DNA from: a virus
Lineage: Duplodnaviria > Caudoviricetes
Reading direction: 5' to 3' (one strand)
Virus record (IMG/VR): IMGVR_UViG_3300037479_000361
Coordinates: 1 to 42,766 of that record
Length of the DNA: 42,766 bases
How positions within the stretch are numbered: the stretch's first letter is position 1; each line of letters opens with the position of its first letter. Under the pieces are notes generated by a model. It did not search any database, was not told where the DNA came from, and saw only the letters and a program-made list of their open reading frames with translations. The position numbers and the translations under genes were made by a program. Shown piece after piece: positions 1-42,766 of this stretch.

Positions 1-11
1 GCCGCCCACAC
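1..11 (+). repeat. Terminal overlap GCCGCCCACAC, identical to 42756-42766
   Basis: Direct comparison of both ends. Confidence 0.9.
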
Positions 12-3000
12 CACCCCCTGCACCTGCACCGCCACCGGTGACGCCTCCCCCTTCCCCACCCACTACTCCGCCGGTGGCTCCGGCCGTCCCGGCCGCTCCA
101 GCTCCAGCACCAAGAAGCGGGATCACCCTCGAGGGCCGGATCAAGACGACCGCGGCGCGGTCGACGACCGTGGTAGCGCGCGTCGAACCGACAAGCGGGG
201 CGTCCTACAACGTCTTTGTCACGCGCCGCGGGCAAGAGTTCGCGGTGACCGCGGGAGTCGGATCCACAGGCACGATTCGAGTTGGCACCTTCTCTTCGTC
301 CGCGAATGCCGCGACCGCGATTGAGCGCCTCTCCAAGAAGGGCCTCTCGCTCCAGGAGATGCTCACGCGCCAGGCGAAAGCCTCGATCGCTCGCGCTGAA
401 GGCCAGCGGGCGCGCGCATCTCGAGAGTTCGAGGAAGGCCACCTCCAGGAGATCCTCCGCCAGCGCGCCGCCGAGGGCATCTCCACGCCGGCCGATGAAG
501 CCCTTGAGCAGTTCTTCGGCTACCCGGTCTACGTGCGCCAGCGGATCACACGCGCGCTCGATCGCGCCCGCCAGATCATCCGCCCCAAGCAGGAGACGGC
601 CGAAAACTTCGATCGGATCGCGCGCGCCGCGGTGCTGGAGTATCTGCGCCGCCGCCCTGACTGGGCCCCGGAGTTGGATGTCGGCTTCTTCCGCCGGTAT
701 CTGTCACAGGCCGAGGAAGCGCAGAAGTTCCGTATTACTACACCTTCCGGGGCACCGCCGTCTCCCATCCCGCCTGGGCCGCCGCGTCCCCCGGCGAGTC
801 CGACCGCCGCGCCGGCGCCGCCGACCGGTCCGCCGATCGGGGACATTGTCCGCTACCTCGATGAGCAGCTCGTGCCCATCCGCACAGGGCGCCTGGGGCC
901 GGTCAAGGCCGGCACGCGGGGCATCTTCAAGCCCCGCGCTGAAGTGGTGCGCACGAGGGAGGCCCTGGATCTCGATACGATCGGCCACGAGCTCGGCCAT
1001 GCCATCGACCAGAAGATTGGCCTGGTCCGCTCGCCATCGCTTGGCCAAGCCACGCAGTTTCTGATGGTCAACCAGTCGTCGTATTCCGCCGCCGCGCTCC
1101 AGCGCGAGCGCGTCGCCGAGTTCGTGAGGACTTGGTTGACTGACCCCGCGACCGCCCGGCGATTGGCCCCGCAGCTGACGGACGACTTCGAACGGAGTCT
1201 GCAGCTCGCGGACCCGCGCTGGTGGAAGGCGATGGTCCAGGCGCAGCAGGACATCGCCGCGTGGAAGGCGCGTACTCCCGTCGACCACGTGCTCGGGCGC
1301 CTGCGTTTCACCAATCCCGAAACACCGCAGGCCCTCAACGGGTGGCAGCGGTTCCAGCAGCAGTTCGTCAACGAGCTCGTCCCGCTCCAGGATGTCGTCG
1401 CGCGCATGACCGGCGGGCAACCACTTGACGCACTGGCGGATCCTGTCGCCCGCGCGGTACGCGCGCGGGGGTGGGGAGGCCGCGCGCAGCATTGGATCCA
1501 GTGGGGACCCGTCGATGACGTTGGGCGCCCGATGAAAGACGCCGCGGGGCGCCCGATCCCGGGGTTGGAAGAGATGCTGCGCGTGGCGCGCGGGCAGGAG
1601 GATGCCTTCTGGGCGTTCCTGGTCGCTCGCCAGGCGCAGACGTGGGAATCGCGCGGGCTGCGCACGGGCTTCGATGAAGCGAAAGTCCGCGCGATCGTTG
1701 GGTCAACGCCGCCGCACCTACAGGCGCTGGCGGATCGATGGGTCGCCTACAACAACGCGGTGCTCGATGAGCTGGTCGACGGCGGGATGTTGGCGGCGGA
1801 TGCCGCCGCCCGCTACAAACAGCGGTATCCGTATTATGTCTCGTTCCAGCGCACAGGATTCCCCGCGGAAGCACGAGGGCCTAAGCCTCGGGGTGCGCGC
1901 CGCGAAGTGAATCTGCCTGCGCCAATCCGTGCCGCCCGCGGGTCGACGATGGAGATTCTGCACCCGCTGGAATCCACGATGCGGCGCACGATCATGGCGC
2001 TGTCGCTCACCTCGCGCAACCGCGTCTGGCGGTCGCTCTATGACCTCGCGCGGGCGACCCAGGGCGCCGGCCGCGAGGTTGAGATCCTGCCGCGTCAAGT
2101 GGTGCCCGTCTCCTTCCGGCTCGAGCGCCTGGACCAGGCGCTGGCGGATATCGGCATCACGAATCTGACCCCCGCGCAGCTCCAGCAGATGATGACGATC
2201 TTCATGCCCCGCGGGCCGCGCGGGATCAGTGCCGAGAACATCATCGCCATCTGGGACGCCGGCACGGTGCGCCACGTCCAGGTCTCCCCGGACCTCTACC
2301 AGCTGGGGCTGCGCCTCAACACCGATACGGCCAACGACTTGGTGCGCTTCTTCCGCCCCTTCACACGAGCGGTGCGGGCCGGCGCGGTGCTCACGCCGAA
2401 CTTCTGGCTGCGCAACCTCGCCCGTGACCAGGTCATGGCGTTCATCAACAGCAACTACGGATACGTGCCGGTCCTCTCGATGCTCAATGGGTTGCAGCAC
2501 GTGATCCGCAAGAGCGCGACCTACAAGCAGTTCTATGGCGCCGGCGGCGCGCAGGCGACCCTAGTAGGGCTCGATGGCCCGTCGCTGGCGACGCAGATGC
2601 GCCGGCTCATCGGGAACGAGACGACGCGCGAGCGCGCCTTCCGGTACGCGACGACACCCATTGAGGCGCTGCGATTCATCTCGAATGCGATCGAAGAAGC
2701 CACGCGCGTCGGCGAGTTCGCGCAGGCGCCCCGGGGGACGCCCCAACAGATCGCCGAAGCCGCCATCTCCGCGCGCCGGCTCACACTGGACTATGGCCAG
2801 TTCGGGACCTCCGGGCGCAACTTCAACGCGATCGCGGCGTTTTGGAACGCGTGGATCCAAGGGCTCGAGCGCATCCGCATCGAGGCGAAGGAGCACCCAG
2901 TCCGCTTCACGCTCAAGAGCGCCGCGGCCATCACCTTGCCGACGTACTATCTCTACTTGCTCAACCGCGACGATCCGGAATGGCTCGCGGCGCCGCGATG

Positions 3001-3865
3001 GCGCAAAGACTTCTTCTGGCACGTGCGCCTGCGGAGCGGCGACCCGGGGCTGTGGATCGCCAAGCCGTTTGAGCTCGGGACGGTCTTCGGGTCGATCCCG
3101 GAGCGCCTCCTCGAAGCCCTGGACGGCCAGCATCCCGAAGCCTTCAATGACTTGACGACGACGCTGCGCCGCCAGCTCGTCGACCAGGCCATCCCGGTGC
3201 CCAACCTCATCTTGCCTATGCTGGAGATCGCCGCCAACTACAACTTCTTCACCGGACGCGCGATTGTGCCCACGCGCGAGCGGCTCCTGCCAGCGCGCCT
3301 GCAGGTCGGCGCTTACACGTCGACCTTCGCCCGCCGCGCCGGAGAAGCGGCCGGCGTCTCGCCGCGCCTGTTGGAACATGCCTTGATCGGGTATACGGCC
3401 GGATTGGGCCGGGTCGGTCTAGCGATTCCCGAAGAGCTCGGCGTGCTCCCGCAGCGGCCCGGGTTCACCGCGCGCACCACGGCAGAACGGGTCCCAGGCG
3501 TTCAGGGTCTCCTGGCCACACCGTATGCGCAGTCGCAAGACGTGGAAGAGTTCTATCGGCGCCTCGAGGAAGTCGAGCGCGAGATTCGCGGGCGGCAATC
3601 GGAAGGCGCGCTCCCTCGTCCTCTTCCTCGCCGTAATCGTGCGCGGCGCGCGATGATCGCCGCGGATCCGCAGCTTCAGGAACGCCAGACCCTCAAGCGC
3701 ACCGCGGACCAGCTCCGCGAACTCCAAGAAGCCATCCGTGAGACCTTGACGCGCACGGACCTCTCGGCGACCCAAAAGCGGTTTCAAATTGCGGCGTACA
3801 ACCGGCAGATGGTGGACGCCGCGCGAAGCGCGCTGCAGCGCCGTCCTTTACCGGCCGCCCGATGA
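1..3865 (+). CDS. C-terminal part of large polyvalent virion/ejection protein (zincin-like HELGH motif, LPD38-like domain); begins at 41374 across the junction
   Basis: Frame open from base 2; TIGHELGHAID followed by ERVAEFVR; C-terminal PRWRKDFFWH...IAKPFELGTVFGSIPER typical of LPD38. Confidence 0.85.
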   Translation, partial: PPTPPPAPAPPPVTPPPSPPTTPPVAPAVPAAPAPAPRSGITLEGRIKTTAARSTTVVARVEPTSGASYNVFVTRRGQEFAVTAGVGSTGTIRVGTFSSSANAATAIERLSKKGLSLQEMLTRQAKASIARAEGQRARASREFEEGHLQEILRQRAAEGISTPADEALEQFFGYPVYVRQRITRALDRARQIIRPKQETAENFDRIARAAVLEYLRRRPDWAPELDVGFFRRYLSQAEEAQKFRITTPSGAPPSPIPPGPPRPPASPTAAPAPPTGPPIGDIVRYLDEQLVPIRTGRLGPVKAGTRGIFKPRAEVVRTREALDLDTIGHELGHAIDQKIGLVRSPSLGQATQFLMVNQSSYSAAALQRERVAEFVRTWLTDPATARRLAPQLTDDFERSLQLADPRWWKAMVQAQQDIAAWKARTPVDHVLGRLRFTNPETPQALNGWQRFQQQFVNELVPLQDVVARMTGGQPLDALADPVARAVRARGWGGRAQHWIQWGPVDDVGRPMKDAAGRPIPGLEEMLRVARGQEDAFWAFLVARQAQTWESRGLRTGFDEAKVRAIVGSTPPHLQALADRWVAYNNAVLDELVDGGMLAADAAARYKQRYPYYVSFQRTGFPAEARGPKPRGARREVNLPAPIRAARGSTMEILHPLESTMRRTIMALSLTSRNRVWRSLYDLARATQGAGREVEILPRQVVPVSFRLERLDQALADIGITNLTPAQLQQMMTIFMPRGPRGISAENIIAIWDAGTVRHVQVSPDLYQLGLRLNTDTANDLVRFFRPFTRAVRAGAVLTPNFWLRNLARDQVMAFINSNYGYVPVLSMLNGLQHVIRKSATYKQFYGAGGAQATLVGLDGPSLATQMRRLIGNETTRERAFRYATTPIEALRFISNAIEEATRVGEFAQAPRGTPQQIAEAAISARRLTLDYGQFGTSGRNFNAIAAFWNAWIQGLERIRIEAKEHPVRFTLKSAAAITLPTYYLYLLNRDDPEWLAAPRWRKDFFWHVRLRSGDPGLWIAKPFELGTVFGSIPERLLEALDGQHPEAFNDLTTTLRRQLVDQAIPVPNLILPMLEIAANYNFFTGRAIVPTRERLLPARLQVGAYTSTFARRAGEAAGVSPRLLEHALIGYTAGLGRVGLAIPEELGVLPQRPGFTARTTAERVPGVQGLLATPYAQSQDVEEFYRRLEEVEREIRGRQSEGALPRPLPRRNRARRAMIAADPQLQERQTLKRTADQLRELQEAIRETLTRTDLSATQKRFQIAAYNRQMVDAARSALQRRPLPAAR

Positions 3866-4879: not shown

Positions 4880-5239
4880 CTACAGGCTAGCGAGCCCTTC
4901 GTTGGTCGCGCTGCCACCACCTGTGGCCGGCGCACCGGACGCCGCCTCGCCACCTTCACCGCCGCGCGCCGCGTCGATGTCCTCGCCGCCGCCCATAGGG
5001 TAGGGGTCGATCCCGACGATGTCGCGCACGTAGGCATCCGCCGCGTCTTGCCCGCAGCCGCACCCTTCTCCCAGCAGCGTCTTGAAGGCTTCCGCCCGTT
5101 GTTTGAGCGCCAACTCCAGCGGCCGTCCGACCAGGTTCGCCAGAGGCGCCGGCGCATAGAGCTCGTCGTCCCAGGTGCGCTCTTTGTGCGTGAGCTGCCC
5201 GGTCTGTTCATTCCGCACCACCGTGGTAATTCTGATCAT
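4880..5239 (-). CDS. Hypothetical protein
   Basis: AAGGAGG SD, ATGA overlap with upstream gene. Confidence 0.7.
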   Translation of the reverse strand: MIRITTVVRNEQTGQLTHKERTWDDELYAPAPLANLVGRPLELALKQRAEAFKTLLGEGCGCGQDAADAYVRDIVGIDPYPMGGGEDIDAARGGEGGEAASGAPATGGGSATNEGLASL

Positions 5240-5730: not shown

Positions 5731-6065
5731 GAGGATCCTCCTCCCTGAAACGATCGCGCCAGGCGCGCGAGTCGCCGGATGTTGGCCGCCCGCTCCTCCG
5801 CACTGAGCCCGACGACGGCCTCGAGCGCCGGCTGCTCTGTGGGTGAAGCCGGTAGCTGCGCATACCCGCTGGCCATCTGCCACACGATCGCGGGTGAAGG
5901 GAACCGTTCCAAGCGCGTGACGACATCCCACATCGCCTGTTCGACCGCGCCATCCGGGAGGTGGCGCAGCACGCCCCACCAGACTTGGCGCTGCGCCGTG
6001 GTCAACGTGAGTCGATACGCTCCTTCGAGCACCGCGAGGGTACTCGCCAACCCTTCGAGCGTCAT
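5727..6065 (-). CDS. Replicative helicase loader/inhibitor (G39P-like)
   Basis: VWWGVLRHLP..VEQAM...ERFPSPAIV pattern; directly downstream of the initiator. Confidence 0.65.
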   Translation of the reverse strand: MTLEGLASTLAVLEGAYRLTLTTAQRQVWWGVLRHLPDGAVEQAMWDVVTRLERFPSPAIVWQMASGYAQLPASPTEQPALEAVVGLSAEERAANIRRLARLARSFQGGGSS

Positions 6066-7141
6066 GGTAATTCCTTCCTCGGCTGCCCCCGCCGTCCATC
6101 GGACACTTTTGCCCGTTGTGGTTGTGCATGTTGTGCATAGGAGGGGGAGCGGAGCGCCCCCCCCTGCGCTCGAAGATCGTCCAGAATCCGCGCCGCCCGC
6201 GCGGTCAGGTCATCTTCGTCCTCGAAGATGCGCCGCACGACCGCCGCCAGGTAACTGAGCGGCCGCTGTGCGGTCCCCAACGAGTCTTCGACCCGCCGCA
6301 AGGCCCCATCGACGGCCCTGGGGCCGTACAGCGCCACCAGGTTAGCGATCCGGCCTCCCTCGCGTGGAGACCGTCTGATGCCTGGAATGGCGCGGTATCG
6401 GCCGATAAACTCGGCGATTTGCGTCCTCAGCTGTGTCAGGTCGCCATCGGCGGCTCCGCCGCCAACAAAAAGCGTGTTGGCGGCGGTAGAAAGAGTCTCT
6501 AAGGATTGCAAGGGCTTCGGTTCAAACCGCAGTTCCAAAGAACGAGAAGCAGTACCAAACAGAGCACTTTCTACCGGCTCTGCAGTGGTAGTAGTACTAC
6601 TGGCGCCGTCCGACAATTTCTGCGCATCGGGGGGGGGGCGGAGCGCCCCCCATAGGGGGGGCGGAGCGCCCCCCCCCGAGGTTTCTCGCTTTTCGGGGTA
6701 TGGGGGGCGCTCCGCCCCCCCCTCGCCCTCGGCTTCCCAGTCCAGCACATCGTCCGCAAACGCGTCGTCGGTGTCCTCCCATCCGCCGGGGACCTCAGCG
6801 GTCAGTGGCGCATACAGCCGGTAGAAGATCCCTTGGATCCGACCGCCCGCGCCGAAGCCGCGCGCTTCCGCCATCAACCCGGCGTCGATCAGTTCCAATC
6901 GCGCACGTCGCAGCCCCCGGTTGTCCGGACGACCAGGAAGCAGCGGCTTCAAGACGGCGCTCGATGGCAAGCGGCTCGTCCCGCTCCGGTGCAGGTAGCG
7001 CGCCAGCAGACAGTACATCCGCAGCGCCATCACTGAGAGGGGCACCTTCAACACGCTGATCGGGATGCTTACCGTCTGCGCCATGCCGATGCGCGCGGGA
7101 GGAGTCGGCAACATCCGGCGCCTGCGCTTATGAGACGACAT
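6062..7141 (-). CDS. Phage replication initiator (N-terminal wHTH, low-complexity linker, helical C-terminal domain)
   Basis: LSVMALRMYCLL...GLRRARLELIDAGLM...IFYRL wHTH; PLSYLAAVV C-terminal motif; internal repeats; lies between RusA and loader. Confidence 0.75.
   Translation of the reverse strand: MSSHKRRRRMLPTPPARIGMAQTVSIPISVLKVPLSVMALRMYCLLARYLHRSGTSRLPSSAVLKPLLPGRPDNRGLRRARLELIDAGLMAEARGFGAGGRIQGIFYRLYAPLTAEVPGGWEDTDDAFADDVLDWEAEGEGGAERPPYPEKRETSGGGAPPPLWGALRPPPDAQKLSDGASSTTTTAEPVESALFGTASRSLELRFEPKPLQSLETLSTAANTLFVGGGAADGDLTQLRTQIAEFIGRYRAIPGIRRSPREGGRIANLVALYGPRAVDGALRRVEDSLGTAQRPLSYLAAVVRRIFEDEDDLTARAARILDDLRAQGGALRSPSYAQHAQPQRAKVSDGRRGQPRKELP
6629..6722. repeat. Iteron-like Gn-CGGAGCG-Cn repeats (putative origin), fourth copy at 6143-6164
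   Basis: Direct copies 6629-6651 and 6655-6677, inverted copy 6702-6722; 6631-6654 and 6699-6722 form a perfect 24-bp inverted repeat. Confidence 0.8.
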
Positions 7142-7538
7142 CAGGCGCCAACGGCGTGACCGTGATCGTGATCGCCAGCAACTCACTGTTGCGGTCAGGC
7201 GCGTCCACCACGGACCAGCGCACGGATCGAATGTGCCGGGGGCGATCGTCTGGCCAGAGGATCCCACGCCCCGCGTCCAGGACCTGCTTCTCGATGTTGT
7301 CCCCATCCGCGCTCGCTCCTGGTACGACGTGAATCGTCAGGTCCACTTGCATCGGCGCTTCATATGGCCACTGCCGCGGCTTCAAGTACTGGAAATGGCT
7401 TCGCAGCCGGTCGGCGTACTCCGCCGAGAGCGTTGGCGTGTACCACTGCACGCCTCCGCGCTGCCCCCGCCGGCCGCGCCGCGCCCTCGCTTTCGGGATC
7501 GGCCGGCCCGGGATGATGAACTCTAGGGTCGCGGCCAC
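7128..7538 (-). CDS. rusA: RusA-family Holliday junction resolvase
   Basis: IPGRPIPKARAR N-terminus; DGDNIEKQVLD...ILWPDD catalytic pattern. Confidence 0.88.
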   Translation of the reverse strand: MAATLEFIIPGRPIPKARARRGRRGQRGGVQWYTPTLSAEYADRLRSHFQYLKPRQWPYEAPMQVDLTIHVVPGASADGDNIEKQVLDAGRGILWPDDRPRHIRSVRWSVVDAPDRNSELLAITITVTPLAPDVVS

Positions 7539-8599
7539 TGCTTGAAGACGGTGGCGATCGCGGTCTCTTTCGGGATCTGCGCCGCCAACAGTTGCACCAG
7601 ACCATACAGGCGTCGATAGTCGACGAGCTCCGCTGCATGCCCGCGCGCTGGGCCCACGGCGCGCCAGAGCCGCTCGCGCTGATCAGACCTCCCAATCTCC
7701 GCCAACGTCGCGATCGTCGCTTCCCTGTACTCGTCGATGGTCTGCGGTAACCGCGCGCCACTCTCTGTCGACGCGCTCGATGGAGCAGGACTCTCGGGAG
7801 AGCTCGGAGGCTCTGCGCCCTGATGCGCGATGGCCTCGTCCACGCCCGTGACTGCCGCTTCTGCTTCCGCCGGCGTCTCGATCTCTGAGAGCCCTTTGCC
7901 TGCCGTCGCCTCTCGCGCCGCGTCCCGCACCGCCTCTGGAGACACCTTGCGCTGCTTCGCGCGCGCGAACAGGTCGCCCCACGCGCCGCCCCCGCCGCCG
8001 ATCTGATAGTCGTCCGGGTTCAGGCCGGCGCGGCGCAGGAACTGTTTGACCCGCGCGTTCACCATCTTGCGGTTGTACGCCGGGTGGCTCTCGTAGGCTT
8101 TCCCCTCGGCCTTCTCGAGCGCCACCGTCGTCGCGTGTGGGTTGGGATACGGCTTGCCGCCATCCCGCGGCACCTGCAGGCGCGGTTCCTCCTTGACCGC
8201 CCACTTCCGCAGACCGGAGAGCTCGTCAATGACGCAGACCAAGGCCCGCACCAACGGCCGGCCATCAGCGGACGTGACATCCTGGATGATTGGTGCGCCT
8301 TCGACCACGAGCTTGACCCGCCCCGTCGCGTTCATCGTGCGGACCATCGCCCGCTTGAAGTCGACGGTCGTTCCGACGATCGGCTTCGGGCGGGCCCGCT
8401 CGATGATGTACAGGAACGCGTCCGCGGCATCGACCGCCGCCGCCGTGCTCACGTCCAGCTTCGCGGTCAGGATCTCGCTCAGAATGGCGTCGTCATTCGC
8501 CCCGGCGCGAATCGCCAGGATGCCAGGCCGCACCACGGTCGCGCGCGCGGCCTCGTCGCCCTCCCCTGCCGCGTGCTCTGAAGACTCGGGATCCGTCAT
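7523..8599 (-). CDS. Putative recombination / single-strand annealing protein (start could be GTG 8716)
   Basis: Position before rusA and initiator; beta-rich core then NPHATTVALEKAEGKA helix reminiscent of phage SSAPs. Confidence 0.45.
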   Translation of the reverse strand: MTDPESSEHAAGEGDEAARATVVRPGILAIRAGANDDAILSEILTAKLDVSTAAAVDAADAFLYIIERARPKPIVGTTVDFKRAMVRTMNATGRVKLVVEGAPIIQDVTSADGRPLVRALVCVIDELSGLRKWAVKEEPRLQVPRDGGKPYPNPHATTVALEKAEGKAYESHPAYNRKMVNARVKQFLRRAGLNPDDYQIGGGGGAWGDLFARAKQRKVSPEAVRDAAREATAGKGLSEIETPAEAEAAVTGVDEAIAHQGAEPPSSPESPAPSSASTESGARLPQTIDEYREATIATLAEIGRSDQRERLWRAVGPARGHAAELVDYRRLYGLVQLLAAQIPKETAIATVFKQWPRP

Positions 8600-8712
8600 G
8601 TGTGGGTCAGCCCCCTCACCGGATGCGCGTCCCCTTGCCCTGCGCGTGGCCCTATACGCCACGGCGCGCGAATCTCCTGCTGTTGCCGCGCGGAAAATGC
8701 GTGGTCTTGGGC

Positions 8713-9648
8713 TCACTCCTTCGAGCTCACCACCTGCTTCTCCTGCCGCGCTGATCGCGCCAGGTCAAACTGCCGGCGCAGCGCGTCTGGCATCGTGTAG
8801 TCCGCATAGGTGGTCGTGGTCGCGATCTTCCGGTGCCGCAGGAACCGCTGCACCGCCCGCAGGTCCGCGCCGGCCTCCAGCATCCGCGTCGCAAAGGTGT
8901 GCCGCAGCATGTGCGGGGTCAGGCGCCGCGCTACCCCAGCTGCCCGCCCCAGACGCCGCACAACCCCCTGTCCCCACCTGGTCGTGCGCACGTGTCCACT
9001 TGGCGAGACAAACACCGGCCCACTCTTGCGGTTCCCACTGGCCGCCAGGTACCGGACCAACGCCTCCACGGTCGCGACCTCGAGCAGCGCGACTTCGACC
9101 GCACCACCCTTTCCCCGGACCCGCACGGTCGCCCGGACCCAGTCGATATCGTCGATCAATAGGCCGCCGTCTGGCGCCCCCGGCTGCCGGCACACCTCGC
9201 CGACGCGCAGGCCCGCATACCGCAACAGGTGCCCGAGTGCCCGCCAATCCCGCCGCGTGGTCCATTCGATGGCCTCCCGGACCGCGCGGTCCTCGTCGTC
9301 GGTCAAGACGCGCCGCGCGCGCCCCTCCCCCGCCCGGGCCCGCCGCTGGATCACCACGAGTTCACGCCGTACCACCGTCATGGGATTCCGTTGCCCTCGC
9401 CCGGACGCGCGCGCCCAAGCGAAGAAGCGCGCGAGTACCACCAGGTACAGCCGCCGCGTCACGGGTGCCCAGTCCCGCGCCCGCGACCAGGCCACCACGT
9501 CCGATGCGCGAACCGTCCGCAGTGTGCGTCCCTGCTCGGACAGCCACCGCTCGAACTGCCGCATGGTCCCTGCGTATTGGCGAACGGTCAACGCAGAGGC
9601 GCCGGCGGCCCGTAACGCCTGTTCCCACGCATCGACCATGGATTGCAT
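8713..9648 (-). CDS. XerC/D-type tyrosine recombinase (no arm-binding domain)
   Basis: GLRVGE, VRGKGG, TPHMLRHTFAT, FLRH, TTTTY give the R-K-H-R-H-Y set; SAM-like N-domain; AAGGAG SD. Confidence 0.95.
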   Translation of the reverse strand: MQSMVDAWEQALRAAGASALTVRQYAGTMRQFERWLSEQGRTLRTVRASDVVAWSRARDWAPVTRRLYLVVLARFFAWARASGRGQRNPMTVVRRELVVIQRRARAGEGRARRVLTDDEDRAVREAIEWTTRRDWRALGHLLRYAGLRVGEVCRQPGAPDGGLLIDDIDWVRATVRVRGKGGAVEVALLEVATVEALVRYLAASGNRKSGPVFVSPSGHVRTTRWGQGVVRRLGRAAGVARRLTPHMLRHTFATRMLEAGADLRAVQRFLRHRKIATTTTYADYTMPDALRRQFDLARSARQEKQVVSSKE

Positions 9649-9715: not shown

Positions 9716-9790
9716 CTCCGCGCCCCTGGAGGGGCGGTCCTCGTCAGGCGCAGTTTCACCGGCTGCACCTGGTCTTGCCGCCCCTCCTTC
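9716..9790 (-). promoter_or_regulatory. Structured leader / inverted repeats upstream of the recombinase
   Basis: GGAGGGGCGG/CCGCCCCTCC outer stem, CAGGTGCAG/CTGCGCCTG inner stem, alternative CGCCCC-TCCA-GGGGCG hairpin. Confidence 0.5.
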
Positions 9791-10064
9791 CGTTTCGCCT
9801 CGCAACGCCTCTCGCTGCGCGCGCGGGACTCGCCCGGTGCCGCACGTCCGCCCAGTGGGCTTTGCTTTCGTCGAACCACTGGTGGATCGCCAGGTAGTCC
9901 CCTGGTGCGGGTAGCCCATGGACCTTCATTTCGGCGTCCTCGCCATGCACGCTGTCAACGAACCCTTCATCGCCTTCCCCGTTGTAGGACGCGACCAGCG
10001 CCACGATCCCCAATGGCGCCAGCCCCTCCCGCAATCCCCATATCCGACCCAGGTTGCTTCCCAT
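9756..10064 (-). pseudogene. In-frame chimera of a DUF6878-like N-terminus and a DUF6915-like fragment
   Basis: GIVALVASYNGEGDEGFVDSV joined to PGDYLAIHQWFDESKAHWADVRHRA, which ends before the expected LRHH; good GAGGAGG SD. Confidence 0.6.
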
Positions 10065-10087
10065 GATGCGCGCCTCCTCGTGGTGTC

Positions 10088-10294
10088 TTAGGTGCTGTGG
10101 TGCGCCTCGAGCATCCCTGCGGCCGGCTCATCGTACTCCGCCCCCCAAGGGTCCTGCCCATGCGCCCGGTCCCGTGCCAGAATCCGCCTATGCTCCGCGT
10201 CCCACCCCCTCGCCCATTCGATCGACCCGTCCCCATCCGAGAACGCCATCCCCATCCGCCGCGCTTCCACCCCGCGCCAGTAGGCGTCTGTCAT
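10088..10294 (-). CDS. Rmf/CrpP-fold-like small protein
   Basis: DAYWRGVEARRMG...IEWARGWD pattern; GGGAGGGGG SD. Confidence 0.55.
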   Translation of the reverse strand: MTDAYWRGVEARRMGMAFSDGDGSIEWARGWDAEHRRILARDRAHGQDPWGAEYDEPAAGMLEAHHST

Positions 10295-10335
10295 CCCGTT
10301 CCCCCTCCCCGGAGAGATGCGGCCGGCCGCGCGGC

Positions 10336-10527
10336 TCATCGGGCTTGCCTCTTGGCCGCGTCCTCCTCGGCGATCAGGCGCGCTTGCACGTCTGCTAACC
10401 GCGCCAGCGCTTGACGCCTCGCCTGATGGCGCAGCATTGAAATGGTGTTGCCGGCAACCGCTGCCCGCGCGTCCTCGAAGTATTGCGCGCCCACCAGAGC
10501 CCGCTGCCCGTCCCGGCCGACGATCAC
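10336..10527 (-). CDS. Hypothetical helical protein
   Basis: GTGA overlap with upstream stop. Confidence 0.45.
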   Translation of the reverse strand: MIVGRDGQRALVGAQYFEDARAAVAGNTISMLRHQARRQALARLADVQARLIAEEDAAKRQAR

Positions 10528-10730
10528 CAGGATACCGCCCGCAGGACCCGTCGCCCGGCGCGGTGGTGTCCCGCCACAGACCACACCCCTCCGGCCGCCT
10601 GGATGGCCGCCGTGCAGGCCCGGCAGTAGTCCCCCCGCAACAGGCGCCCGCAGTCATCGCAGATCGGGCACCGGTCACACTTCCAACAGCATCGCGTCTT
10701 CGGATGGATGCCACACGTCACGTACCCCAT
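10524..10730 (-). CDS. Cys-rich Zn-binding microprotein
   Basis: CGIH, CCWKC, CPIC, CRAC motifs. Confidence 0.65.
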   Translation of the reverse strand: MGYVTCGIHPKTRCCWKCDRCPICDDCGRLLRGDYCRACTAAIQAAGGVWSVAGHHRAGRRVLRAVSW

Positions 10731-10733
10731 GCC

Positions 10734-10985
10734 TCAAATCACCCCCCGTCGCCCCTGGAGCCGGCCCGCCAGCGTCGCCACTTCCGCCCGCAGCGCCCGG
10801 TCGCGCGCCAGAATGATCTCGCGTTCCCCACGCCGGCGCACCACCTGCACAGCGTCTGGGAACACCTCAACCACCCGCAATCCTACCCGCACGCGCACCA
10901 GGGCCGGCAGGCGCCCGACCACCACACCCCGCAGGCGCCTCCGATGTCCTGGCATCCGTACCCGTACCGCGTCGCCTTCCTTCAT
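10734..10985 (-). CDS. Small SH3/KOW-like beta-barrel protein
   Basis: MKEGDAVRVR...RGVVVGR...VRVRVG; ATGA coupling. Confidence 0.6.
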   Translation of the reverse strand: MKEGDAVRVRMPGHRRRLRGVVVGRLPALVRVRVGLRVVEVFPDAVQVVRRRGEREIILARDRALRAEVATLAGRLQGRRGVI

Positions 10986-11160
10986 TGGCCGCCCGCCTTC
11001 CCCTCGTCCCCGATCCCATCCTGCTCCCACTGCGCCACCAACTGGCGCGCCCGGTCCGTGAACAGGTCCGCCAACAGTTGCGCGTCTCGCTCCGCGTCGA
11101 TCGGGTCGCGCGCCAACAGTCCCCCAATCGCCCGCGCCAACCACCCCGACGTGGCCGAGC
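10982..11160 (-). pseudogene. C-terminal part of a small mobile-element protein (S.WL..A....RDP.DA..DA..L type)
   Basis: ATSGWLARAIGGLLARDPIDAERDAQLLADLF; no clear start of its own, abuts truncated RadC. Confidence 0.5.
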
Positions 11161-11565
11161 CAGTCCAAGCCGCGCGAAACACCGTCGATCATCGACCGAA
11201 GGCTCCGGATTCCCTGAAGGGTGGTTGTGCGCGATGATTACGGCCGCCGCCCCTAACAACAACGCCGCCCGGAACACCACCTTGGGGTCTATCTGGCAGT
11301 CAGCCTGCCCTCCTGAGGCGATTACCTTCGCAGCGATCACGCGGTGACTCTGGTTCAGGGCGATTAGCACCGTATGCTCCTGGTCTGCGTCCTCCAAGTC
11401 GATGAGCGCCTTCGCGATGCGTGATGGGCGCGTACCCCAGGCGCGCGGCGCGACGGTACGGTTCAGGCGTTCGAGCCGGTCGCGCAACTGCGGCAGGTTG
11501 CCGGCCGGTACGCGGAAGATGGTACGTGTGGGCGCGTCATGCGCGTCAGAGTTCAGAAATATCAT
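11160..11565 (-). pseudogene. radC: RadC/JAB-domain chimera, C-terminally truncated (ORF runs on to 10867 as junk)
   Basis: QEHTVLIALN...PKVVFRAALLLGAAAVIIAHNHPSGNPEPSVDD intact, but the G.....LDH tail is missing; unrelated N-terminus. Confidence 0.8.
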
Positions 11566-11687
11566 CCTTTCCGACGATTCGCCAAAATTCTCCAGGAATA
11601 GTCCCTAGCCGGCCGCCCTCACGGCCATCGGAGTGAGGAGTTCCGGGATTCAGGTTCCCGGACGGTGACGGGCAGACTTCGGTGCAT

Positions 11688-11716
11688 AGTATGGCATAAC
11701 TGCCCATTATGCGCAA
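11688..11716 (-). promoter_or_regulatory. Sigma70-type promoter for the leftward early operon
   Basis: TTGCGC-17 nt-CATACT on the minus strand, ~120 nt upstream of the first leftward gene. Confidence 0.6.
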
Positions 11717-11717
11717 G
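11689..11717. other. dif-like recombination palindrome (candidate attP or operator)
   Basis: Minus strand CTTGCGCATAA-TGGGCAG-TTATGCCATAC versus E. coli dif GGTGCGCATAA-TGTATA-TTATGTTAAAT. Confidence 0.55.
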
Positions 11718-11931
11718 TTTTGGGGGCTGTGGACTCCTCGCCCGGGCAGGCAGGCGCCCGGTCGTGCGCGCGCACGCGAGGGGGAGGGGGGAGGGCGTCC
11801 CGGCCCGCCCCCCGGTTTTTTGCAGCTTTTCTCACTTTTCCACGCCACACCTGGTCCCAAAAACTGACCCCCGGACCGGCAGGAGACGGGCTCTCTGGCG
11901 TCGTATTACCTGCCACGCAGGGGGACATCCG

Positions 11932-12033: not shown

Positions 12034-12079
12034 AAAACCGCGTGAAAACGATGCAAACGGGTGCAAAAGGGGGCAAAAG
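12031..12079 (+). repeat. Five helically phased A-tracts
   Basis: A-runs start at 12033, 12045, 12055, 12065, 12075. Confidence 0.7.
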
Positions 12080-14746: not shown

Positions 14747-15198
14747 CCGCAGGGGCCTGGCCGGATCGCGTCCGGATCGAAGGCGTCGGAGCATCCTGGC
14801 GCGTGATCGGGCGCGGGCGGTGTTTCAAGCGACCCGGAGGGCTCTGGGGCACCGGCTGCCGCCAGGAGATCCTCTGGGCGCTGACGGGAAAGGGAAGGCT
14901 GGTGGCGCTGGATGCCACGCCGCAAAAGGATGGTCGATACCGCCTCCACGGACCCACCTGCCCCGGGCTTCGAGTCGCTGTGGCAGGCGCGGTTGCGGAG
15001 CATGACGCTGCCGGCGCCGACCGTAGGGCTGGCGCCGCTGGGGGAGCGGGACCGAGAGATCCTGATTCGATGGATCGCGGGGGAGCGCGAGGACGAGATC
15101 GCGGCGGTGATGGGGGTTGCGCCGGCGACGGTACGAAACCGGCTGATGCGGCTGCTGGCGCTGGCGCGCCGCGTGCAGCTGGGCGGCCGCGACCTTGA
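14743..15198 (+). CDS. Small Zn-binding phage protein with probable read-through tail
   Basis: C...GCRQEILWALTGKGRLVALD...HGPTCP; ATGA coupling; tail overlaps the next gene. Confidence 0.55.
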   Translation: MTAGAWPDRVRIEGVGASWRVIGRGRCFKRPGGLWGTGCRQEILWALTGKGRLVALDATPQKDGRYRLHGPTCPGLRVAVAGAVAEHDAAGADRRAGAAGGAGPRDPDSMDRGGARGRDRGGDGGCAGDGTKPADAAAGAGAPRAAGRPRP

Positions 15199-15238
15199 GC
15201 TTGATGTCTTCCGACGACGGACTGCGGGACCTGTCTGA
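14930..15238 (+). CDS. LuxR/sigma-region-4 type HTH protein (start may be 15002)
   Basis: LGERDREIL...GEREDEIAAVMGVAPATVRNRL. Confidence 0.75.
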   Translation: MVDTASTDPPAPGFESLWQARLRSMTLPAPTVGLAPLGERDREILIRWIAGEREDEIAAVMGVAPATVRNRLMRLLALARRVQLGGRDLELDVFRRRTAGPV

Positions 15239-39773: not shown

Positions 39774-41369
39774 ATGTCGCTGTTCATCGATGCCTTCACC
39801 CGCGCGCTGACCGATGCGCTCGCCGGCTATCACGAGTTTGAGGGGCGGGTGCGGCCGGCCCTTGAGGAGCAGGCGTTCATCCGCGGCGAGCGCAAGCGGG
39901 TCGCCGGCGAGCGGGCCGCCTCCGAAGCGTCGGCGCAAGTCGAGGAGCTGGAGCGCCTCTACGGAGGACCGCAGGGTGCCTTCCAGGCGAAGGGTGACGA
40001 GTACCTCGCGCTGCGGCGCGCGGCGCGGCGCATCGTGCCGGGCATCAAGGACGTGCCGGAGACCACGCGCACGCAGACCGAGACCATCACCTATCCCGGA
40101 CAAGGCGGGTTCCAGGATGTGACCACTCCGGTCACGTACCAGCCTGGGGGGCGCGCGCCCGCAGGTGGCACTGCTGGAGCCATCGCGGACGTGTTGCGTG
40201 AGAGGACGCGCCAGGGCCCCACAGCCTTTGAGGCCGAGATCCCAGGGTTGAGCGCCGTCAGCCGTGGCGAGCAGGTTCTCGCCCAGGGCGAACCCTTGCC
40301 GATTCCTGAAGGCGAACCGGAGATCCGCCGCGCGATCACCGAGACGCCTACCGGGCGGACCGTGCGGCGCCTGGATCTGCCGGAAGGACCCGAGGAACCG
40401 ATGGTGCCGACCGCCGCGGGCCCGATCCCGATTTCGCTGCTTCATAAGTGGGGCGGCCCAGAAGCGGTGCGCAACGTCTTGGGCATCCAGGATCCACTCG
40501 CGCGCGCGCGCCTCGCCTTCGATGTGGGAAAGGCCGCCGCGGACTACTCGCTACGCCGTGCTGAGGACGCGACGCGCCGCTATCTGCATGACACGCCGTC
40601 GGCGGCCGCACAGATGACCGCTAAGCTTACGCGAATCCGCGACGAGAACACGCGACTCTATCAGGCGAGCCTACTCGAGATCCAGCGCGGCAACGCCCAG
40701 GCGCTGGCCGCCTACCGCGCAAAGCAGATCGAGCTCGAGATCGCCACGCTGGCGCTACGCCGGCAGGCCCTTGCGCAACGGACAGCGGCAGGGGGACAGA
40801 TCACCCGCGCGCAGGCACTCGCCGCCTATCGCGAGTTTGGCGAAGACTTGGACCGCTTCCAGGAACAGCTGGCGTCCTTGCGCCAGGATCGCTCGCCTGA
40901 CGCTGAGCGCACGCGGCGCACGCTGCAGATTCAGATTGAGATGACGACGCGAGAGCGCGACCGACTCCGGACGGTCCTCACGAGTGGTGGCGGCGCTCCT
41001 GGCGGTGCAGGTGCAGGGCCGTCAGCGCCCGCCGCCGCGCCGTCATTGTTGAGCCCTGGGGCGGTCCCACCGGCGTTGCGCTACCCTGCCCCGGCAGGAC
41101 CCGCGCCCGTGGCGCCCACGGTGGCCCCGCGCGCCGCGCCGACCGGCGGCGCCGCCGTCCCGCGACCGGATCAACCGGGCCGCGTGCCATTCCGGCCGGC
41201 TCGCCGAGAGCAGCGCGCGGATGGTACGATCATCTACCACACGCACGGCAGCGGGCCCATGACGAGCGCGCAGATCTTCCAAATCATCAGACAAAGCGGG
41301 CTGTCCGACGAGGAGCTTCGCCAAGCGTTGACCGAGAACGGGATCGATCCGGCGGAGTTCGGGTTCTGA
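39774..41369 (+). CDS. DNA ejection (internal virion) protein
   Basis: Coiled-coil and low-complexity segments; precedes the polyvalent protein. Confidence 0.7.
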   Translation: MSLFIDAFTRALTDALAGYHEFEGRVRPALEEQAFIRGERKRVAGERAASEASAQVEELERLYGGPQGAFQAKGDEYLALRRAARRIVPGIKDVPETTRTQTETITYPGQGGFQDVTTPVTYQPGGRAPAGGTAGAIADVLRERTRQGPTAFEAEIPGLSAVSRGEQVLAQGEPLPIPEGEPEIRRAITETPTGRTVRRLDLPEGPEEPMVPTAAGPIPISLLHKWGGPEAVRNVLGIQDPLARARLAFDVGKAAADYSLRRAEDATRRYLHDTPSAAAQMTAKLTRIRDENTRLYQASLLEIQRGNAQALAAYRAKQIELEIATLALRRQALAQRTAAGGQITRAQALAAYREFGEDLDRFQEQLASLRQDRSPDAERTRRTLQIQIEMTTRERDRLRTVLTSGGGAPGGAGAGPSAPAAAPSLLSPGAVPPALRYPAPAGPAPVAPTVAPRAAPTGGAAVPRPDQPGRVPFRPARREQRADGTIIYHTHGSGPMTSAQIFQIIRQSGLSDEELRQALTENGIDPAEFGF

Positions 41370-41373
41370 GCAG

Positions 41374-42766
41374 ATGGCGATCGATCTTCGTACTCTCGTC
41401 GCCGGCCGGCGCCCGATCGATCTTCGGCAGTTTCTATCGCCGTCAGAGGCGCCGGTCCGTCGCGTCCGCACGATCGAGGAAGAACGTCGTGGTCTGATCC
41501 CACCGCTGACGCCCGGCGTCCTGACACCTGAGGAGCGCCGGCGCACGCTCGAGGCCACTGAGCGGCGCCGCGCAGAACGCGCGGTGGCCACGCGTCGCTA
41601 CCTCGAAAGCCCAGGGGTCGCGCCTGCATTCTTGCGCGGGACGGTCAGCGAACTCGCGTCGCCGTTTGCCGCGCGCGAAGAGGCTTCGCGCGCCGAAGCC
41701 CTCGGACGGAGTACCGCCGACATCATCAGGCCCCTCGCCCCCTCACCGACCCGCTCAGCGCGGGTCGCCGAAACAGCCGGCCGGATCCTCGGCGGGATCC
41801 CGAGTGTTGCCGGGATCGCCTCGGTCCGCGCCGCCCGGCCGCTGCTGCGCGTCGGCGAAGCGGTCACGCGTCGTCTGCTCCCCGCGCATGGATTGCAGAC
41901 GGCCACCCTGATCGGCCAGTCGGTCGGATCCATCCTCCAAGGAGCCGGGATCGGAGCGACCTACGCCGGTCTGCAGGTCGCCGGCGAGCACTACAACGCC
42001 TTGCGAGAGATCGCTCGGACTGATCCCACCGCCGCCGCCCGGATCATCGGGGAATCCGCCGGCCTGGGCGCGACCTACGGGGCGGCGATCGCCACCGGCC
42101 TGCGCACAGGGTCTCTGACGCGAGAGGCCATCCGCCAGACCCTCGAAGAGATCACCGCGCAGACCGCGCGCGCGACCCGCGCGGCCGAGTCCGCCGGCCA
42201 GATTGCGGTTCCATCTCCGATCATCGGGCGTGGTGGGCGCCGCCCTGACGGCGGAGGTGACGGTGGGATCCTTGCCGACGTCGCACTCCAACGAGAAGCG
42301 ATGGCGGTCTCAGAACGCGCCAGGGAGGCCGGAAATCGGGCCGCAGAGATGATTCGCCGGCACCAGGAGGCTCGCGCATCGGCTCCGCCGTCTCGAAGCC
42401 GTCTGGTGTCACCCAGGGGCCGCCTGCTGCCTTCTACGCAGGCCCCTGCCCCGCCCGGCCCTGGCGAGCTGGTGCGAGCCCCCGTTCCCGCGGCCCCCCG
42501 GGAAGTGTTGCCAGGTCCACAGGCTCGGGCAGAGGCACGCGCCGCGGCGGCAGAGGCGGCGCGTGCGGAAACCTCTCGAGCGACAGCACGTCTTGCGCAG
42601 CTGCCGCGTGAAGCTGGCGGTGTCGTTCTTGGCGAACGCCGTCCGATCGACCTCAAGACGCTGATCCTTCCCGGAGCGCCGCAGCCCGCTCGCGGGCCGC
42701 TGATCATCCCATCTCCTCTCGCGGCGCCCCGGGAGCCGGCGCCACCACCGCCCCCGCCGCCCACAC
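41374..42766 (+). CDS. N-terminal part of the large polyvalent protein (absent from ORF track; continues at base 2)
   Basis: MAIDLRTLVAGRRPIDLRQFL... open to the window end, in frame with 38..3865 through the 11-nt overlap. Confidence 0.85.
   Translation, partial: MAIDLRTLVAGRRPIDLRQFLSPSEAPVRRVRTIEEERRGLIPPLTPGVLTPEERRRTLEATERRRAERAVATRRYLESPGVAPAFLRGTVSELASPFAAREEASRAEALGRSTADIIRPLAPSPTRSARVAETAGRILGGIPSVAGIASVRAARPLLRVGEAVTRRLLPAHGLQTATLIGQSVGSILQGAGIGATYAGLQVAGEHYNALREIARTDPTAAARIIGESAGLGATYGAAIATGLRTGSLTREAIRQTLEEITAQTARATRAAESAGQIAVPSPIIGRGGRRPDGGGDGGILADVALQREAMAVSERAREAGNRAAEMIRRHQEARASAPPSRSRLVSPRGRLLPSTQAPAPPGPGELVRAPVPAAPREVLPGPQARAEARAAAAEAARAETSRATARLAQLPREAGGVVLGERRPIDLKTLILPGAPQPARGPLIIPSPLAAPREPAPPPPPPPT

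Follow-up and report, generated by a model that had tools for sequence, protein, structure and literature searches.

The tailed-phage record IMGVR_UViG_3300037479_000361 contains a single palindrome with the geometry of a tyrosine recombinase site, two 11-bp arms around a 7-bp core, upstream of a leftward operon that encodes a recombinase together with likely replication genes. This unique 11-7-11 palindrome is a real feature of the DNA. Its most likely reading is a recombinase-type site that lies over a likely promoter and serves in autorepression. That it is a recombinase-type site of some kind is probable; that it is bound by the phage's own recombinase, which would resolve dimers there and repress its own operon, is plausible rather than probable. 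An initial annotation had proposed that the palindrome is a dif-like site at which integration would itself switch off the early promoter. We consider such an integration-triggered off-switch less likely than a site for the phage's own recombinase.

The record comprises 42,766 bases (the window, by which we mean this whole stretch), with a GC content of ~66%. It is catalogued as linear and 62% complete. However, its termini have 11 bases in common, and a large LPD38-domain gene (~41360-42766 joined to 1-3865, plus strand) reads in frame over this overlap, so a circular and complete genome is probable despite that listing. The leftward operon begins at 11565, and the rightward genes from 12 kb include those for terminase, portal, and capsid. 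There are no tRNA genes and no Rfam matches at gathering level in the window. In Pfam, the plus-strand interval 17446-18525 matches the CBASS inhibitor Acb3 only weakly (E 0.00075, under the cut-off). The phage is present in two freshwater metagenome runs, X1 and X2, from two studies. An X1 contig spans 6693-16000 unbroken and a 617-base X2 contig spans 11122-11738, each with 0 differences from the record; thus, the intact form of the palindrome exists in two studies, a count that has to be read with the possibility that X1 is the record's own source. The features discussed here are collected in Table 1.

Table 1. Features of the window and of other phage records. Promoter ranks are genome-wide and come from a score with assumed weights.
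Feature	Position	Strand	Remarks
Likely replication initiator gene	6062-7306	-	very high score to RepA_N, DnaB_2, and HTH_36 clusters
RusA resolvase gene	7128-7538	-	
Possible single-strand annealing protein gene	7523-8716	-	lead only, fairly high score; start overlaps recombinase stop
Simple tyrosine recombinase gene, 311 aa	8713-9648	-	R148-K180-H246-R249-H272-Y281 intact
Top sigma70-like match of the genome	9653-9681	+	rank 1; shortly before the recombinase start and antisense to the operon
ORF with DUF6915 fragment only	9756-10064	-	profile 17-43 of 102
First leftward ORF, RadC-like JAB domain cut short	10867-11565	-	profile 4-91 of 121; apparently out of frame near 11160
Second inverted repeat	11642-11662		7-bp arms, 7-bp spacer; in leader of leftward operon
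Rightward promoter-like site over right arm	11665-11692	+	rank 34
Degenerate additional half-site	11684-11689	+	5/6; 10 bp from right inner arm
Sigma70-like promoter of the initial annotation, predicted	11688-11716	-	-35 at 11716-11711, TG at 11696-11695, -10 at 11693-11688
Palindrome, tyrosine-recombinase geometry (11-7-11)	11689-11717		arms 11707-11717 and 11689-11699; core 11700-11706
Rival leftward promoter-like site	11706-11733	-	16-bp spacer; -10 inside left arm; called by promoter scan; rank 15
Terminator-like GC hairpin, then six T	11786-11821	+	
LexA-type winged-helix protein gene, 84 aa	14492-14746	+	no peptidase domain; predicted rival binder of the palindrome
Sigma70-r4/LuxR HTH protein gene	14912-15238	+	
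Sites of the 16-record family (L395, L397, L399, L401-L403, L405, L407, L408, L410, L412, L413, L415, L417, L418, L420)	near 5001 in most		

The minus-strand letters quoted in the initial annotation for 11688-11717 are confirmed. The two arms of the palindrome are self-complementary at 7/11 positions, and ATAA-N5..9-TTAT occurs once in the 42.8-kb genome, at the palindrome itself. The exact 6+6 palindrome arose in 0/100 shuffles, a looser form in 2/300, and ATAA-N6-8-TTAT in 10/300, figures that flatter the palindrome because the pattern was picked after the site had been seen. The palindrome is also the best genome-wide match (21.2 bits; next 11.4) to a matrix for which other phages supplied 11 distinct arms. 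Weaker copies are not above chance (2 matches at 3 mismatches, with 4.4 expected), and by AT content the site ranks in the top 2% of 30-mers. On its rightward side, the DNA immediately before the first rightward gene (12051-12078) contains three direct repeats of the GCAAA type at intervals of 10-11 bp. On its leftward side, the recombinase gene is 2.0 kb away, with broken-looking genes intervening.

Our reference for dif was that of E. coli K-12 (NC_000913.3). As the initial annotation had stated, the left arm agrees with the XerC arm at 9/11 positions, with the inner bases conserved. The right arm agrees with the XerD arm at 7/11, and its outer six bases differ at four. The core has 7 bp rather than the 6 bp of E. 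coli dif, and the first 2 core bases are common to both. In the portion of their survey considered here, Carnoy and Roten describe the dif core as a hexamer in every proteobacterial genome that they analysed and the XerD arm as the better conserved (PMC2731167). The term "dif-like" is apt for the XerC arm and the inner bases, but it is too strong overall, given the 7-bp core and the missing outer XerD arm. To judge from its letters, the palindrome is Xer-like by shape and not a canonical dif. With chromosomal dif/XerCD, and with the elements described as exploiting it, it has in common 11-bp arms and conserved inner bases (PMC2731167, PMC5357621, and PMC7062461, in part); the phage differs in its 7-bp core, its degenerate XerD arm, and the possession of a recombinase of its own.

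Less certain than the palindrome is the promoter that the initial annotation placed over it, with overlapping rivals predicted on both strands. The proposed TTGCGC-N17-CATACT arrangement is present and has a TG extension, but it is a middling match (-35, 3/6; -10, 4/6), with a genome-wide rank of 44 and no place among the promoter-scan calls. The genome's strongest match lies elsewhere, and together with the terminator-like hairpin beyond the palindrome it could yield a 2-kb antisense RNA.

The enzyme of the operon fits the simple tyrosine recombinases. Pfam shows a core-binding and a catalytic domain only, in keeping with the earlier observation that an arm-binding domain is lacking, and the R-K-H-R-H-Y residues are in place. 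The protein, called "Xer-type" in the initial annotation, fails the curated cut-offs for XerC (125/335 bits), XerD (106/330), and XerA (136/220). Its closest annotated phage matches are Gordonia and Mycobacterium integrases with 27-31% identity. Together with its two nearest relatives, it groups with Brujita-like integrases, as their sister group, in a 43-row tree built without row L428_yr2 (support 95/88) and in a 27-row tree (96/92), though with long branches and 27-31% identity. The searches returned no close relative of the recombinase: the best match has 37% identity, and viral scans gave distant ones only. It is the sole recombinase found in the window, where no serine integrase, ParA, or second integrase was found. 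Given that neither ParA nor a second integrase was found, the single recombinase may be needed for integration. Arm-less Brujita-type integrases do integrate, according to the part of a classification of recombinases drawn on here (PMC8138268).

The recombinase gene sits within the replication operon and is coupled to the gene that follows it. Further along, the likely initiator gene contains iteron-like 24-nt repeats starting at 6141, 6630, 6653, and 6699. These four G-run/C-run repeats (6141-6164 and 6630-6722), one of them inverted, are a candidate origin, and the X1 assembly breaks there. The initial stretch of the operon (9756-11565, minus strand) looks eroded, with a truncated RadC gene and a DUF6915 fragment, and the X2 contig bears out the sequence of this region over 11122-11738. 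Between 9649 and 11700 there is no HTH match, the ORF upstream of the recombinase being the DUF6915 fragment. Pfam scans of 57, 115, and 137 ORFs revealed no CI/S24 repressor, as the initial annotation had noted.

The search for integrated forms gave no attB, attL, or attR for the phage in the genomes and contigs covered. The 17 nt of inner arms and core, sought as a host site in species genomes, gave 21 matches, all chance-like: 18 lie in long open frames, the outer arms agree at no more than 4/6, and no recombinase gene is found within 4 kb. Among the contig joints and loose ends listed, none falls near 11700 (~70% of X1 was covered, and contigs cannot prove absence). Relatives of the phage proved scarce. 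In 401 + 301 genomes of two guessed host phyla, capsid relatives had at most 40% identity, a terminase scan returned nothing, the longer palindrome pattern had 0 matches in viral records, and a metagenome motif scan produced 57 loci with no close relative among them. The loose palindrome pattern is found in 2/36 records of capsid relatives, versus control matches in 3.

Viral records contain similar motifs, and these differ in their association with recombinases. The motif closest to the palindrome, TGCGCATAA-N7-TTATGC, has 36 loci, one of which has a recombinase within 4 kb (1/59 for a control pattern); it is often a stop codon, a ribosome site, and a start codon in succession. A stricter motif, derived from sites seen in recombinase loci, has 27 viral loci, and in 14 of them a tyrosine recombinase lies no more than 5 kb away. 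Sixteen of the 27 were chosen as one family by virtue of a third half-site, and these records are not independent. The third half-site is at +87 in 14 records, +86 in one, and +85 in one. The family sites are near-perfect 11-7-11 palindromes with 12 distinct cores, which are 7 bp long in 14/16, and each record has one site, mostly between an operon with a simple tyrosine recombinase and a primase gene. A large serine recombinase is encoded in 10/16 records (7 over the cut-off), and two further records have a second, longer tyrosine recombinase, bringing the records with a separate integrase to 12/16; ParA is encoded in 7/16. In three family proviruses, the site is intact and internal, between recombinase operon and primase. 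One of these has a serine integrase near the record end (76/104 proteins were scanned); in the other two, which are incomplete, no second integrase was seen. The separate integrases in 12 of the 16 records and the three intact provirus sites indicate that the motif is not attP in this family, where it acts like a site for resolution or control. No promoter is conserved across the core sites of the family. The family appears to have a resolution system, with an accessory site at a fixed position, that has yet to be described; no description of it was found in the openly accessible literature searched.

Since the family forms one clade, and a joint clade that includes the window recombinase is rejected (p-AU 0.0019), the family provides only an analogy for the window. 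The third half-site of the family, at +85 to +87, is absent at the window palindrome. The three Brujita-like phages examined have no similar palindrome within 2 kb of int. Other arrangements of the motif occur. In L053 (5810-5970) and L059 (5410-5570), a recombinase gene has an upstream 11-6-11 site with two extra half-sites; the gene adjoins an opposite-strand terminase-like gene and, in L059, lies between two such genes. In L428 (5170-5235), a cluster of half-sites of the motif precedes a second simple recombinase gene by ~25 bp.

We propose that the recombinase encoded at 8713-9648 uses the palindrome, which is positioned over the predicted promoter of the enzyme's own operon, as its core site for binding and crossover. 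Two recombinase subunits would bind the near-symmetric arms. Dimeric circles would arise by replication or by recombination involving RusA and the annealing protein, and two palindromes would then recombine within their identical 7-bp core, giving monomers and rebuilding the same promoter. As the enzyme accumulates, its occupancy of the interval between -35 and -10 would repress the recombinase-replication operon, a negative feedback that would need no CI. Several observations point this way. The genome contains just one such core site, which is near-symmetric, lacks an outer XerD arm, and is linked to the operon of the enzyme; its 7-bp centre matches the geometry of known single-recombinase sites. 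The recombinase gene is part of the replication operon, and the intact form is present in both studies. Elsewhere, the strict motif lies near recombinases in 14/27 loci, compared with 1/59 for the control (5 kb versus 4 kb). In the 16-record family, such sites mostly coexist with separate integrases and stay intact in three proviruses, and in the separate lineage of L053 and L059 the recombinase gene is closely preceded by a site of this kind with extra half-sites. Promoters inside the TnpI resolvase site are modulated by the enzyme, as the available account has it (PMC7157771). Other observations argue against the proposal: the window enzyme groups with the Brujita-like integrases and outside the 16-record family, the three Brujita-like phages lack the palindrome near int, the closest motif is unlinked to recombinases (1/36 loci), and 2 kb separate the site from the gene, with no third half-site at +87. 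Further, with neither ParA nor a second integrase, the lone recombinase may serve integration.

In the parts of the literature considered here, several systems resemble this arrangement. The TnpI-irs systems of Tn5401 and Tn4430 likewise pair a single tyrosine recombinase with an upstream site that contains promoters and modulates expression through the enzyme (PMC7157771), but they belong to transposons and have DR1/DR2 accessory sites beside the gene, where the phage has one degenerate half-site and a distance of 2 kb. Rhizobium etli IntA acts alone, and in both directions, on attA and attD, whose palindromic arms end in ATAA/TTAT around a 7-bp centre (PMC4928290); it differs in forming plasmid cointegrates and in the outer arms, and we liken the two by site and not by enzyme kinship. 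The prophage of P1 is a plasmid and has partition genes. Cre acting on loxP, like the unit proposed here, is a single recombinase encoded by the phage that maintains its circular genome in monomeric form (PMC2409434, in part). No ParA was found in the window. The mycobacteriophages BPs, Brujita, and Charlie have the arm-less integrases nearest to the window enzyme in our trees; in the available descriptions (PMC3694055, PMC4557955), integration decides the outcome, attP lies inside the repressor gene beside int, and the repressor is thereby stabilised. In the window, no repressor gene adjoins int. The IS621 circle junction also rebuilds a promoter, albeit in an insertion sequence (PMC13626964), and Pcer is a promoter controlled at a recombination site, the cer of plasmid ColE1 (PMC4393325), where repression by XerCD is a proposal only. 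As described in those accounts, neither is a lysis-lysogeny switch.

Other proteins may occupy the palindrome. It could be an operator between -35 and -10, bound by the LexA-type protein, another phage protein, or a host regulator, with the recombinase site elsewhere; this is unlikely, though far from negligible. The palindrome fills the interval between -35 and -10 exactly and coincides in part with promoter-like sites of either strand. One helical turn away there is a degenerate half-site, two HTH proteins are encoded, and the Brujita-like relatives lack the motif near int. It also fits T-N11-A, the rule for LysR-type operators. The BPs operator, in the account available, is similarly placed between the -10 and -35 of PR (PMC4557955). 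Nevertheless, it would be surprising if an operator resembled by chance the inner arms of Xer-type sites at a spacing of 6-8 bp, a second copy is absent from the genome, and the winged-helix gene is deep in the rightward operon, away from the palindrome. Host XerC/XerD serve phages and islands whose integration site is dif; as the enzymes acting here they are most improbable. The 9/11 XerC arm and the first two core bases would suit them, and phage dif motifs are reported to be most variable in the spacer and XerD arm (PMC7062461, in part), but the 7-bp core, the loss of the outer XerD arm, and the intact enzyme of the phage speak against them; the gokushoviruses of that study, as far as its available text goes, encode none. 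It is very improbable that the palindrome is an accident within an AT-rich promoter patch. The inner 4+4 pattern does recur in shuffles, the patch is AT-rich, and the motif was picked post hoc, but the 6+6 form did not recur, and the palindrome falls in the sole divergent control region.

The initial annotation had argued that exchange within an attP core would part -35 from -10 and silence the replication operon, with excision rebuilding the promoter, which we judge improbable. This scheme accords with there being a single recombinase in the window and no ParA or serine integrase, with the absence of a recognisable CI/S24 repressor, with the position of the core in the promoter spacer, and with the grouping of the enzyme with integrases that do integrate (PMC8138268, in part); if the operon used the rival promoter at 11733-11706, its -35 would be exchanged as well. 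However, positions 2-7 of the conserved left arm make up the -35. A dif-type partner therefore brings back 5 of the 6 bases of this element, and TG and -10 lie wholly in the arm that the operon retains. In silico exchange with an E. coli-type dif kept 5/6 of the -35 with a spacer of 17 or 16 bp. The base lost is the first T, so some weakening of the promoter is possible, and with a partner whose outer arm differs, more of the -35 could be lost. Silencing is therefore possible, but it does not follow from the exchange. Moreover, in the 16-record family this motif does not serve as attP, and silencing would presumably remove the recombinase needed for excision and leave no superinfection immunity. 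Alternatively, the palindrome may be attP for the phage recombinase with a promoter that survives integration, control being exerted by binding of the recombinase or an HTH protein; this is quite improbable. It draws on the same indications of attP, as well as on the retained TG/-10 and the need for any partner to conserve the inner arm. On the other hand, an attP 2 kb from int, in a control region, is atypical, and the 16-record family favours a resolution site. Even together, the attP readings are clearly unlikely.

The concept of such a switch is not new in itself, with precedents, in the parts of the sources considered, in integration-dependent immunity (PMC3694055) and circle-junction promoters (PMC13626964). 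No description of an attP core that splits a phage early promoter without a repressor was found in the openly accessible literature searched, so this arrangement would be new, if shown. It would mean a tailed phage without CI, in which one arm-less recombinase is integrase, repressor, and switch, with the attP core in the early promoter, a prospect as improbable as the silencing itself. If true, the lysogeny circuit would be simpler than the three-gene integration-dependent switches and would test the idea, put forward in the text available of PMC3694055, that recombination was the ancestral switch. On the reading that we prefer, a site for the phage's own recombinase, the significance is modest: the phage would provide one more compact unit of recombinase plus site with operon feedback, here also covering the replication genes. 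The 16-record family, with its conserved 7-bp-core site, third half-site at a fixed distance, and separate serine integrase, may be worth more.
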